Of a stretch of 64,000 nucleotides of DNA, positions 13,340-50,467 are shown piece after piece. This stretch comes from Eledone cirrhosa (lineage: Eukaryota). The notes below the pieces were generated by a model. It did not search any database and was not told the origin of the DNA. It was given only the letters and a program-made list of their open reading frames with translations. The stretch lies in contig OZ024740.1 in NCBI GenBank assembly GCA_964016885.1, positions 358,360,001 to 358,424,000 of the forward strand, in the 5' to 3' direction. Each line of letters opens with the position of its first letter. The first letter of the stretch is position 1. The position numbers were made by a program, and so were the translations under genes.

Positions 13340-13816
13340 ACTTACACACACACATACGAGCGAGATACGGTCTCCCGACCATTCCCGCATCATATGGAAC
13401 AAAACCGTCTAACCCATGCTAGCGTGGAAGATGGACTTTAAACGATGATGATGATATATATATAGTAGTCATGGGACACAGTTATTAGTTATGCAATAAA
13501 TATATTTTGTACTCAGTGTCATTATAATCCAAGATACCTGCATTTGAAATGTGTTCTATCACGTTTATAGAATATTAAATATCAAATGATACATATATAA
13601 TTAAGTTAAAGTGTACATCTACATATGTATACGGAAGTATTAGTATGCATATAAATACACACATGTATACATATGTACATGTACTCAGCTTTTCACTAGA
13701 CACTTTACAGTGAGTGTCAGCTAGTCTGTATGTAACCACACAGGCGGACCGGGTTTTAGAGTCATACGAGTTTTCAAGGAAACACATTTCCTCTATTCTC
13801 CAGAGGGCCAGACAGG

Positions 13817-13861
13817 AATATTGGACTAGTTTCGATGTTATTACATCTCATCAGCAATATT
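13817..13861 (-). ncRNA. Type I hammerhead ribozyme, array copy 1 (further minus copies at 14286-14330, 14755-14799, 15224-15268, 15693-15737)
   Basis: Minus strand reads AAUAUUG-CUGAUGA-GAUGU(aaua)ACAUC-GAAA-C(ua)G-UC/CAAUAUU. Stem I extends over 13795-13889. Confidence 0.92.
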
Positions 13862-16414
13862 TACCCATCTTCCGGCTTCTCTGGAGAATTGTAAAAGCAC
13901 ATATCGTTATATGCTTTCTCTATGAAAATTAGTAGTGGGTAGACTAATTTGCATAGAACGTGAGTCATTGTACGCACCGGTTCAGCGGAAACGATAAAAA
14001 CAAATAACGAAACGAAATTAAATCTCGTTTCGCTTCTAACTCACTTTTGTATGACTGACGCTTAAACAATTAAGTTAAAGTGTACATCTACATATGTATA
14101 CGGAAGTAATAGTATGCATATAAATACACACATGTATACATATGTACATGTACTCAGCTTTTCACTAGACACTTTACAGTGAGTGTCAGCTAGTCTGTAT
14201 GTAACCACACAGGCGGACCGGGTTTTAGAGTCATACGAGTTTTCAAGGAAACACATTTCCTCTATTCTCCAGAGGGCCAGACAGGAATGTTGGACTAGTT
14301 TCGATGTTATTACATCTCATCAGCAATATTTACCCATCTTCCGGCTTCTCTGGAGAATTGTAAAAGCACATATCGTTATATGCTTTCTCTATGAAAATTA
14401 GTAGTGGGTAGACTAATTTGCATAGAACGTGAGTCATTGTACGCACCGGTTCAGCGGAAACGATAAAAACAAATAACGAAACGAAATTAAATCTCGTTTC
14501 GCTTCTAACTCACTTTTGTATGACTGACGCTTAAACAATTAAGTTAAAGTGTACATCTACATATGTATACGGAAGTATTAGTATGCATATAAATACACAC
14601 ATGTATACATATGTACATGTACTCAGCTTTTCACTAGACACTTTACAGTGAGTGTCAGCTAGTCTGTATGTAACCACACAGGCGGACCGGGTTTTAGAGT
14701 CATACGAGTTTTCAAGGAAACACATTTCCTCTATTCTCCAGAGGGCCAGACAGGAATATTGGACTAGTTTCGATGTTATTACATCTCATCAGCAATATTT
14801 ACCCATCTTCCGGCTTCTCTGGAGAATTGTAAAAGCACATATCGTTATATGCTTTCTCTATGAAAATTAGTAGTGGGTAGACTAATTTGCATAGAACGTG
14901 AGTCATTGTACGCACCGGTTCAGCGGAAACGATAAAAACAAATAACGAAACGAAATTAAATCTCGTTTCGCTTCTAACTCACTTTTGTATGACTGACGCT
15001 TAAACAATTAAGTTAAAGTGTACATCTACATATGTATACGGAAGTATTAGTATGCATATAAATACACACATGTATACATATGTACATGTACTCAGCTTTT
15101 CACTAGACACTTTACAGTGAGTGTCAGCTAGTCTGTATGTAACCACACAGGCGGACCGGGTTTTAGAGTCATACGAGTTTTCAAGGAAACACATTTCCTC
15201 TATTCTCCAGAGGGCCAGACAGGAATATTGGACTAGTTTCGATGTTATTACATCTCATCAACAATATTTACCCATCTTCCGGCTTCTCTGGAGAATTGTA
15301 AAAGCACATATCGTTATATGCTTTCGCTATGAAAATTAGTAGTGGGTAGACTAATTTGCATGGAACGTGAGTCATTGTACGCACCGGTTCAGCGGAAACG
15401 ATAAAAACAAATAACGAAACGAAATTAAATCTCGTTTCGCTTCTAACTCACTTTTGTATGACTGACGCTTAAACAATTAAGTTAAAGTGTACATCTACAT
15501 ATGTATACGGAAGTAATAGTATGCATATAAATACACACATGTATACATATGTACATGTACTCAGCTTTTCACTAGACACTTTACAGTGAGTGTCAGCTAG
15601 TCTGTATGTAACCACACAGGCGGACCGGGTTTTAGAGTCATACGAGTTTTCAAGGAAACACATTTCCTCTATTCTCCAGAGGGCCAGACAGGAATGTTGG
15701 ACTAGTTTCGATGTTATTACATCTCATCAGCAATATTTACCCATCTTCCGGCTTCTCTGGAGAATTGTAAAAGCACATATCGTTATATGCTTTCTCTATG
15801 AAAATTAGTAGTGGGTAGACTAATTTGCATAGAACGTGAGTCATTGTACGCACCGGTTCAGCGGAAACGATAAAAACAAATAACGAAACGAAATTAAATC
15901 TCGTTTCGCTTCTAACTCACTTTTGTATGACTGACGCTTAAACAATTAAGTTAAAGTGTACATCTACATATGTATACGGAGTCCAATATTCCTGTCTGGC
16001 CCTCTGGAGAATAGAGGAAATGTGTTTCCTTGAAAACTCGTATGACTCTAAAACCCGGTCCGCCTGTGTGGTTACATACAGACTAGCTGACACTCACTGT
16101 AAAGTGTCTAGTGAAAAGCTGAGTACATGTACATATGTATACATGTGTGTATTTATATGCATACTAATACTTCCGTATACATATGTAGATGTACACTTTA
16201 ACTTAATTGTTTAAGCGTCAGTCATACAAAAGTGAGTTAGAAGCGAAACGAGATTTAATTTCGTTTCGTTATTTGTTTTTATCGTTTCCGCTGAACCGGT
16301 GCGTACAATGACTCACGTTCTATGCAAATTAGTCTACCCACTACTAATTTTCATAGAGAAAGCATATAACGATATGTGCTTTTACAATTCTCCAGAGAAG
16401 CCGGAAGATGGGTA

Positions 16415-16459
16415 AATATTGCTGATGAGATGTAATAACATCGAAACTAGTCCAACATT
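16415..16459 (+). ncRNA. Type I hammerhead ribozyme, plus-strand array copy (also 16884-16928 and 17352-17396)
   Basis: AATATTG CTGATGA GATGT aata ACATC GAAA CTAG TC CAACATT; predicted cleavage after 16452. Confidence 0.9.
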
Positions 16460-17868
16460 CCTGTCTGGCCCTCTGGAGAATAGAGGAAATGTGTTTCCTT
16501 GAAAACTCGTATGACTCTAAAACCCGGTCCGCCTGTGTGGTTACATACAGACTAGCTGACATTCACTGTAAAGTGTCTAGTGAAAAGCTGAGTACATGTA
16601 CATATGTATACATGTGTGTATTTATATGCATACTAATACTTCCGTATACATATGTAGATGTACACTTTAACTTAATTGTTTAAGCGTCAGTCATACAAAA
16701 GTGAGTTAGAAGCGAAACGAGATTTAATTTCGTTTCGTTATTTGTTTTTATCGTTTCCGCTGAACCGGTGCATACAATGACTCACGTTCTATGCAAATTA
16801 GTCTACCCACTACTAATTTTCATAGAGAAAGCATATAACGATATGTGCTTTTACAATTCTCCAGAGAAGCCGGAAGATGGGTAAATATTGCTGATGAGAT
16901 GTAATAACATCGAAACTAGTCCAACATTCCTGTCTGGCCCTCTGGAGAATAGAGGAAATGTGTTTCCTTGAAAACTCGTATGACTCTAAAACCCGGTCCG
17001 CCTGTGTGGTTACATACAGACTAGCTGACACTCACTGTAAAGTGTCTATGAAAAGCTGAGTACATGTACATATGTATACATGTGTGTATTTATATGCATA
17101 CTAATACTTCCGTATACATATGTAGATGTACACTTTAACTTAATTGTTTAAGCGTCAGTCATACAAAAGTGAGTTAGAAGCGAAACGAGATTTAATTTCG
17201 TTTCGTTATTTGTTTTTATCGTTTCCGCTGAACCGGTGCGTACAATGACTCACGTTCTATGCAAATTAGTCTACCCACTACTAATTTTCATAGAGAAAGC
17301 ATATAACGATATGTGCTTTTACAATTCTCCAGAGAAGCCGGAAGATGGGTAAATATTGCTGATGAGATGTAATAACATCGAAACTAGTCCAACATTCCTG
17401 TCTGGCCCTCTGGAGAATAGAGGAAATGTGTTTCCTTGAAAACTCGTATGACTCTAAAACCCGGTCCGCCTGTGTGGTTACATACAGACTAGCTGACACT
17501 CACTGTAAAGTGTCTAGTGAAAAGCTGAGTACATGTACATATGTATACATGTGTGTATTTATATGCATACTAATACTTCCGTATACATATGTAGATGTAC
17601 ACTTTAACTTAATTGTTTAAGCGTCAGTCATACAAAAGTGAGTTAGAAGCGAAACGAGATTTAATTTCGTCTCGTTATTTGTTTTTGATACATATATAAA
17701 TATAGTAAAATAAAATATATATAATATTTATTTATACATAGTATATATTATACTATGAAAATACGATAAAATAAAGTACCAGTAATGTAGTGGTTAATTG
17801 CTGGCCTTGTGCCTAAAGTAGAAACAATTATATTATTTATTATATATAAATTAACGATTTTATTTATT

Positions 17869-25977: not shown

Positions 25978-26560
25978 CACATTTATACACGTGTGTATAT
26001 ATGTGTATGATGTGTATGTATTAATGTTTGTTCTCTTCAGAGAGAAATAATACATTTTAAAGCTTCTGAACAATAATGGTTTATTAATGGTTTGAAATGA
26101 GATGAAATAGCGATTGATTCTCACATATTATGTACGATATATTTGATATATCTTAACACACCCGCCTACTAAACCCACATTTCTTTCTTTAATCTATTTC
26201 AGGTTGGTTTCACATAAACACTTACACATATACACACACATATACACACATACATATTTACACACATACATACATACATACATACATACATACATACATA
26301 CATACATACATACATACATACATACATACATACATCCATCCATCCATACATACACGAAAGGCTGAAAACTCTGCTAAGAGTTTTGCAATCGCTTGTCAGA
26401 TTATAGAGTTTGGTGCACTTTTAGGCTACGGTCAGCCACACGAACCTGTAGCATATCCCGAACAAGTAATACTTCTGCTTTGAAGGTTTTTTAAGTGGGG
26501 AAAGGCTATACATACATACATACATACATACATACATACATACATACATACATACATACA

Positions 26561-27620
26561 TGGTGGCTGCCAACTCGTTTTCGAGTACGGCCACTACTTT
26601 ATATCCATGTAGGAGAACCCCTACCGATGCGCTAAACAAGTGTGACTTTTTAGTCCAGCCAGCGACTTGAAAACTCTGGTACAAACACTACACCTGTGAC
26701 AATTATTGACACATAGTGCTAGACCCATGGTACGATGTGACGACAAGTGCAGAGAGATCTCCAGATATAAAGCAATGCCTGTGCCGTGAAGCTTTTATAG
26801 TGAGCAAAGGCACTGCACAAAGCCAGTCCCACACTCTTAACCAAGATGATATTTAACAAAAAGAAGAACAAGTCAACATCATTGGATACCATCAGGGTTG
26901 CAGGTGTTATATCAGAGCTTTCCTTCTCCTAGAATTCTGCCTTGACAAAGGCTAAGGGGTCATCTCTCTCGGATACATATATACATACATACATACATAT
27001 ATATATATATACATGGTGGCTGCCAACTCGTTTTCGAGTACGGCCAGCACTTTATATCCATGTAGGAGAACCCCTACCGATGCGCTGAATGAGTGTGACG
27101 TTTTAGTCCAGCCAGCGACTTGAAAACTCTGGTACAAACACTACACTTGTGACAATCATTGACACAGTGCTAGGCCCATGGTACCATGTGACGACAGGTG
27201 CAGAGAGATCTCCAGATATAAAGCAATGCCTGTGCCGTGAAGCTTTTATAGTGAGCAAAGGTACTGCACAAATCCAGTCCCACTCTCTTAACCAAGATGA
27301 TATTTACCAAAAAGAAGAACAAGTCAACATCATTGGATACCATCAGGGTTGCAGGTGTTATATCAGAGTTTTCCTTCTCCTAGAATTCTGCCTTGACAAA
27401 GGCTAAGGGGTCATCTCTCCCGGTGATTTTGGATGGTCATTGACGCTTAAGAGCTCCTTTGCCCTTTGACAGGTTTTGTTTTTAGTCCTGCAGGATGTCC
27501 AAAGTCACCCTCCTCGCCAAGAAACCTTGGTGGGGTTGCCAGTTTAGTCGCCAACGACCCGACCATGAGACAGGTTGTACTGGGATACATGTTACCAGTA
27601 GCACCAACTGGTGACCTGAC
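26561..27620 (-). repeat. Local 453-bp-offset duplication of an interspersed repeat resembling an RTE 5' region, between (TACA)n tracts
   Basis: 26561-26968 is nearly identical to 27014-27419; related segments lie at 28340-28480 and 28920-29465. Confidence 0.7.
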
Positions 27621-50396: not shown

Positions 50397-50467
50397 TGAC
50401 GTACATGGGAGTCGAACCCACATCTTTGGTTAGCGCGACCACTGTGCTACCATTACACCAACTCATC
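50397..50467 (-). pseudogene. tRNA-like cloverleaf (pseudo-tRNA or SINE head) inside a rearranged repeat
   Basis: A box TGGTGTAATGG, anticodon arm TGGT(CGCGCTA)ACCA, T arm GTGGG(TTCGACT)CCCAT, weak acceptor stem, and a T5 run about 12 nt downstream. Confidence 0.55.

Follow-up and report, generated by a model that had tools for sequence, protein, structure and literature searches.

Positions 13587-17699 of the window, which denotes the whole 64,000-nucleotide stretch of Eledone cirrhosa DNA that was analysed, were identified by sequence comparison as a single insertion of a 469-nt type I hammerhead retrozyme, with two head-to-head arms flanked by a 14-bp target-site duplication. The arms met 3-4 nt upstream of a predicted ribozyme cleavage site, and this closeness is likely a coincidence, the outcome of an ordinary truncation. 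In the family at large, the density of inner arm ends was at background at the scissile bond but rose about twofold in the 20 nt downstream of it, and the excess, which sits at +7..+20, likely reflects stalling of the reverse transcriptase near a folded hammerhead. The reading that we favor, and consider fairly probable as a whole, is that a Penelope-like enzyme made one hammerhead retrozyme insertion by priming two cDNAs, that the junction in the window arose by chance and that the enzyme sometimes stalls downstream, near the hammerhead.

Layout of the insertion

Unit positions were counted from +1, the first base 3' of the GUC cleavage triplet, in a unit of 469 nt, and the features of the insertion are collected in Table 1. 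The outer end of the sense arm (297) can be set beside the family 3' end at 299, the first fixed start site, and that of the inverted arm (225) fell within the second (224-231). At the junction, the antisense arm terminated ...TATACGGA at 15980 and the sense arm ran from the A at 15980, which fits both arms, through GTC (15981-15983) into CAATATT, as the initial annotation had it; its placement of the predicted scissile bond at 15983/15984, 469 nt before the one at 16452/16453, was likewise confirmed. That annotation also proposed a near-microhomology, AGT, from the continuation of the antisense arm. The continuation past 15980 would indeed read AGTA, but the longer match is superfluous since a 1-nt overlap was the commonest junction type among the inversions mapped in the family (27 of 127). 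The catalytic core was absent from the unit that holds the hammerhead remnant at 15980..15990.

Table 1. Coordinates of the retrozyme insertion and its parts in the window
Feature	Position	Strand	Remarks
Left target-site duplication copy, TGATACATATATAA	13587..13600	+	Final 2 nt (AA) also match the element
Inverted arm, 5.1 units of 469 nt	13599..15980	-	Outer end at unit 225, inner end at 189
Head-to-head junction	15980..15980	.	One A common to both arms, 1-nt microhomology
Sense arm, 3.6 units	15980..17686	+	Inner end at -4/-3, outer end at unit 297
Partial hammerhead	15980..15990	+	(A)GUC, predicted cut 15983/15984, 3' strand of stem I
Unit positions +7..+20 in the first sense unit	15990..16003	+	Zone of the 2.4-fold pile-up of inner ends in other copies
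Complete type I hammerhead	16415..16459	+	Predicted cut 16452/16453; recurs every 469 nt in both arms
Right target-site duplication copy	17686..17699	+	14 bp

Comparison of the contigs of four sequencing runs with 15880-16080 gave no piece across the junction, a result that carries no weight either way. One run (X4), labelled as another organism, had a single 499-nt contig (unit length plus 30) with a depth of 2.4 and otherwise without variants. Elsewhere in the window, a 451-bp two-copy repeat with (ATAC)n boundaries was located at 26520-27423, and a weak tRNA-like match, possibly the head of a SINE, at 50397-50467.

The hammerhead motif

The motif consisted of stem I, CUGAUGA, stem II, GAAA, a 2-bp stem III within the palindrome ACUAGU, and GUC; it had the CUGANGA, GAAA and NUH core of a type I hammerhead, stems I-III, and was open at stem I. 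The best Rfam assignment was HH9 at 27.9 bits (E 1.4e-4), under the gathering score of 52. When seven real copies were aligned, 98% of the cells in the hammerhead pairs were paired and compensatory changes occurred in 7 of the 14 pairs, mostly contributed by one diverged sister-family copy. The cleavage triplet was GUC in the window insertion and GUU in many copies of subfamilies B, C and D. In the predicted circular fold of the unit, the hammerhead was in its active form and +1..+29 were paired. As judged from sequence, the hammerhead is real as a motif, and self-cleavage is predicted for it. One copy (G000:C5:81646256-81646305) had the hammerhead core deleted precisely up to +1.

The retrozyme family

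Exact matches to the family 3' end that ran into non-element sequence amounted to at least 2,293 copies in the 3.0-Gb genome. In all, 174 insertions were mapped in two sets. Set 1 (94 insertions) was drawn from the first 100 listed matches, contained in 100 stretches; seven were removed (two endless arrays, a duplicate, one that lacked a 3' end and three from a separate match set) and one second insertion was added. Set 2 (80 insertions) comprised 57 of the 59 matches of one search and the first 23 of the 43 matches of another, with the omission of L150, which contained an assembly gap, and of the inverted stub of L168. Head-to-head inversions made up 127 of the 174 loci, 43 were single-armed and four were of other kinds; a tiny inverted stub was present in 13 of the 41 single-armed loci that were checked. 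Two fixed sites, at 299 and at 224-231 of the unit, served as starting points for the arms of the family. The outer end of the inverted arm was at 220-231 in 105 of 121 arms, and the 3' end at 297-299 was also found in unselected matches. The target sites of the mapped loci were almost all (TA)n-rich, and the duplications lay inside (TA)n and were of uncertain length. The overlap at the junction was 0-2 nt in 69 of the 127 inversions. In L1 twin priming, the head-to-head inversion lies within the target duplication, the junction microhomology is short and first-strand ends are enriched near the second primer. The retrozyme shared the head-to-head inversion and the short microhomology, and ends near its second primer were also in excess (21 versus 12.2 expected at 221-240), but unlike L1 its second priming site was fixed, there was no poly(A) and both arms could extend over many units.

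The non-LTR retrozymes of metazoans are described as low-GC tandem units with a type I hammerhead and a short stem III (Cervera and de la Pena 2020, PMC7229834; Li, Clavereau and Pollet 2026, 10.64898/2026.07.22.740005), and a circular RNA intermediate and a Penelope origin have been proposed for them in the same papers. The present element resembled them in its low-G+C tandem units, judged to be non-coding from their short, stem-rich sequence, in having one type I hammerhead per unit, and in its dispersed arrays with target duplications of more than 4 bp (14 bp in the window insertion). It differed in the length of the unit, 469 nt as against RNAs of 170-400 nt and repeats of 150-450 bp in the sections of those papers available to us. 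Endonuclease-bearing Penelope-like elements have a tail and an inverted 5'-truncated copy (Craig et al. 2021, PMC8557442; PMC11167929), and two internal start sites and AT-rich targets have been reported for Penelope elements (Frangieh et al. 2024, PMC11167929). The retrozyme shared with these the two fixed start sites that define a tail, an inverted 5'-truncated arm without a tail, (TA)n targets and insertion from a mostly uncut template; unlike them, it is judged to lack an ORF, its tail was about 70-75 nt rather than 30-40, and both arms were multimers. On these sequence features, the element joins the metazoan non-LTR retrozymes as a new member, one with Penelope-type ends.

Possible partner elements were abundant. 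The genome contained 10,596 GIY-YIG candidates, of which 150 were scored, and reverse transcriptase ORFs were found in the flanks of the mapped loci; no match to the 469-nt unit was present in the pLTR of 30 GIY-YIG loci, among the matches listed. Some of the Penelope-type reverse transcriptase/GIY-YIG elements had long open frames (L235:1-2440, L045:4060-6399 and L038:208-3597). The copy in L235 ended in GTTTTC before (TA)n, resembling the GTTTTT end of the retrozyme, and L038 and L147 had hammerhead-like motifs of their own downstream of the ORF. Two loci, L106 and L107 (G000:C1, about 95.63-95.69 Mb), were long satellite-like arrays of at least 21 and at least 17 units with no end visible. 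A second hammerhead repeat family, with a GUA triplet and a unit of about 490 nt, occurred at L235:2700-3264 on the reverse strand and L118:5870-5924 on the forward strand, and had the same GAAACTAGT stem III as the 469-nt retrozyme, together with a motif that resembles unit positions 274-314. This motif, near the first start site and present in both hammerhead families, is possibly a shared recognition signal.

Inner ends downstream of the cleavage site

In the locus test, the inner ends of arms longer than 60 nt were compared with the number of times that each unit position had been passed, the first 60 nt being skipped. In the genome-wide single-base test, sequence patterns that caught about half of the ends near the site (capture 0.49-0.51, with equally conserved anchors) gave 57, 40, 75 and 147 matches (100 of the 147 listed) to B/C/D-type units. 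These matches, a few of which overlap the locus samples, were classified by eye, and those on contigs C1 to C28:66 Mb were retained; matches that could be read as intact units with a substitution or an indel (12 of 57, 8 of 115 and 19 of 100) were set aside and obvious duplicates were counted once, leaving 211 ends, and the null consisted of simulated uniform ends with chance extension. The subfamily of the window insertion, type A, was sampled with 27 and 34 matches, less the window itself, one duplicate, nine ambiguous matches and one indel.

In set 1, 16 ends fell at +1..+20 versus 6.6 expected, an interval that was picked after the fact. With the interval noted beforehand, the excess was replicated in set 2 (11 versus 5.4 expected, p=0.021), and the pooled count was 27 versus 12.1 (p=9e-5, or 0.011 after correction for scanning). 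It also held under a length-preserving null in which lengths were jittered (p<0.001), and when counted per locus. A genome-wide comparison noted in advance gave 127 ends at +1..+20 versus 39 at -14..-1, a ratio of 2.24 (p=4e-6), the ratio predicted beforehand being 3-4. Genome-wide, 107 ends lay at +7..+20 versus 44.3 expected (ratio 2.41, with limits set after seeing the data) and +1..+6 was at background (20 versus 18.3). In A-type units, there were 26 ends in 11 downstream positions versus 23 in 19 (p=0.014, without sequence correction). The excess was 4.2-fold on first arrival at the site, 1.8-fold on the second and 1.65-fold later, a post hoc contrast that is descriptive only and in which the later-pass excess was non-zero (11 events); by arm, it was 2.9-fold in the inverted and 1.7-fold in the sense arm. 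The site was crossed 475 times, as compared with 27 stops at +1..+20 of which about 12 were expected, and the excess thus concerned about 3% of approaches.

Several candidate features of the distribution were dropped. An apparent restriction of the excess to subfamily C (15 versus 4.2) relied on a family assignment that is unreliable for short first-arrival arms, because these contain no cut site, and a comparison of GUC with GUU units was confounded in the same way. A sharp edge at +1, where the best 20-nt window in the loci began, gave way genome-wide to a rise that starts near +7, and an upstream depletion in the loci (6 versus 11.7) was absent genome-wide, where the flanks had 28 versus 30.2 and 45 versus 42.8 ends. 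General stalling at hairpins or an effect of base composition was rejected as well: outside this zone, predicted pairing was uncorrelated with end density (rho 0.01), the hairpin at 141-160 was depleted of ends although equally paired, and G+C content showed no correlation with end density. At some junctions (for example C1:381443208, C9:41704858 and C1:29058295, the last being L046), +7..+12 or the region of the cut site had been copied again as short tandem repeats, suggesting that the enzyme may pause and re-prime. Ends also formed a minor peak at -8 (5 and 6 matches), within the stem III palindrome ACTAGT; some of these were perfect fold-back junctions.

A stall near the folded hammerhead, the reading preferred here, fits the first-arrival bias, as such a structure would disappear when the RNA becomes paired with cDNA; since pairing was not predictive elsewhere, the stall would need something special to the hammerhead. 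The main rival is that the junction in the window is due to chance and that the excess at +7..+20 arose by run-off from a self-cleaved linear RNA with a 5'-OH at +1, 7-20 nt of cDNA being lost before joining. This is unlikely, although several observations agree with it. The excess was confined to the 3' side of the cut, with 27 ends in the 20 nt downstream and 6 in the 20 nt upstream in the locus sample (127 versus 39 genome-wide), and was strongest on first arrival. Moreover, both arms ended in the zone at L115, L166 and L177 and, as classified by eye, in several genome-wide pairs, which is commoner than looks random and which a physical end of the RNA would explain, and linear and circular retrozyme RNAs are reported to coexist in other animals (PMC7229834). 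Nevertheless, 1) the background density at +1..+6 would require that at least 7 nt be trimmed nearly always, 2) first-arrival ends near the second primer site were mostly within about 10 nt of it, 3) in 7 of 16 first-arrival stops the partner arm had passed a cut site (in one case by no more than 4 nt), for which a linear monomer could not be the template, and 4) the upstream depletion that was seen in the loci did not recur genome-wide.

A lesser rival, and an improbable one, is that the excess at +7..+20 was produced by joining or trimming rather than by copying stops, through a preference for sequence or microhomology, the palindromes AATATT and ACTAGT, or homology with the partner strand of stem I. 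Fold-back junctions do occur at palindromes, as in the peak at -8, and in L157 and L160 the junction lies between +16/+17 and the complementary strand at 404-409. Against this, the simulated null with chance extension failed to yield the excess, the partner strand at 401-440 was not enriched (22 versus 22.5), and the density of ends did not follow G+C.

Inner ends at the scissile bond

The initial annotation had proposed that the cDNA ended at or just past the point of cleavage or ligation, that the closeness of the junction to this point was beyond chance and that breakpoints would be enriched at the GUC site. This was supported neither for the window junction nor for the GUC site. The sense arm holds three to four templated bases from upstream of the bond and had crossed three earlier cut sites, so that the junction represents a fourth arrival; the retained GTC and the three crossings indicate read-through of the bond, not run-off from a 5'-OH end. 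For a given insertion, the probability of an inner end within -4..+4 is 3.4%, and 2,293 insertions would be expected to contain about 68 such junctions. Within this interval, 7 of 272 inner ends were found versus 4.7 expected in the 174 pooled loci (p=0.2; 5 versus 2.6 in set 1 and 2 versus 2.1 in set 2). In B/C/D-type units genome-wide, there were 25 ends versus 24.8 expected (ratio 1.01, CI 0.61-1.61), with 5 versus 5.8 at -4,-3 and 3 versus 2.5 at +1 alone, and A-type units had 8 ends in the 8 positions at -4..+4 versus 14 in 9 flanking upstream positions. A hot spot at the scissile bond was therefore rejected in loci, in B/C/D-type and in A-type units. Although the window sense arm starts at -4/-3, L045 at -4 and L046 at -3 (the latter with a stutter), and a few ends lie exactly at +1 (L206; 3 of 45 in one pattern set), the idea that the bond itself stopped the enzyme is largely refuted and very improbable, given the background counts at -4,-3 and -4..+4, with which A-type units agree, an upper 95% limit of 1.6-fold for enrichment, the three sites already passed by the window arm and the inability of a cleaved end to supply bases upstream of the bond. 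The same annotation named a uniform distribution of breakpoints as the outcome that would speak against it; the distribution was flat at -4..+4 but was not uniform, owing to the approximately twofold excess at +1..+20. Of its footprint of the ribozyme in vivo, a weak mark of the ribozyme region survives at the level of the population, at +1..+20 and centred on +7..+20; it differs from the mark that was proposed and does not include the window junction. The single junction that prompted the analysis carries no weight as evidence.

The RNA template

Among the 56 two-armed loci with enough coverage, 218 variants were fixed across all covered units of both arms; 33 of these occurred at a single sampled locus each, including two in the window insertion. 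In 40 of 92 loci, the sense arm most similar to an inverted arm was its own partner, and there were 17 ties. The haplotypes shared by the two arms would be explained if both were copied from one RNA molecule that had passed through a monomer bottleneck, most simply a circle. In 22 of 56 loci with fourfold or higher coverage, the window insertion included, other variants were restricted to a subset of the units (68 sites, 47 of them absent from other sampled loci; examples are L035, L090, L108, L186 and L198). In the insertion at 13599-17686, position 4 was C in five of nine units and position 184 was T in two of nine; such unit-to-unit differences speak against a single monomer circle, which predicts identical units. 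The subset variants may stem from gene conversion or assembly polishing, from a template that was multimeric, or from a modified template base that was misread repeatedly; 4C disrupts one pair of stem I.

Discussion

In the mechanism that we propose, a Penelope-type protein would cut both strands of an AT-rich target, and both cut DNA ends would prime on one RNA, at 299 and at 224-231. The template would probably be a ligated circle that is copied round several times. Both cDNAs would extend toward the 5' side of the RNA, often for several units, halt at largely random points and be joined over 0-2 nt of microhomology. The cut or ligation site would usually be read through, and in a few percent of approaches, mainly the first, the leading edge of the enzyme would meet a folded hammerhead core or a bound protein and stall 7-20 nt short of the core.

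In R2 elements, the cut made by an HDV-like ribozyme defines the 5' end of the RNA and the type of junction in the genome (Eickbush et al. 2013, PMC3774820). In contrast, the insertion ends of the retrozyme were not concentrated at the cut: the site was read through in about 95% of approaches with no spike at the bond, and intact RNA, whether circular or uncut, is therefore the main template. Hammerhead cleavage has been reported to be dispensable for Penelope insertion in vitro, with no RNA ends seen at the cut (PMC11167929). No mapping of inversion or truncation breakpoints on the unit was found in the available sections of PMC7229834 and 10.64898/2026.07.22.740005, and no breakpoint map on a retrozyme unit was found in the open-access literature, mostly at the level of titles and abstracts.

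The counts in this one large family provide a genomic answer to the question of the role of the hammerhead in the mobility of Penelope elements and retrozymes. The reproducible twofold excess just downstream shows that the enzyme is still affected by the ribozyme region, and the stall zone is a modest, replicated and testable addition to this picture. We put it at slightly better than even that the pile-up at +7..+20 is a fossil record of the state of the hammerhead, folded, protein-bound or cut, in germ-line RNA during reverse transcription. If this is true, retrozyme and Penelope families could be read for the folding or cleavage of ribozymes in vivo with no more than genome sequence.
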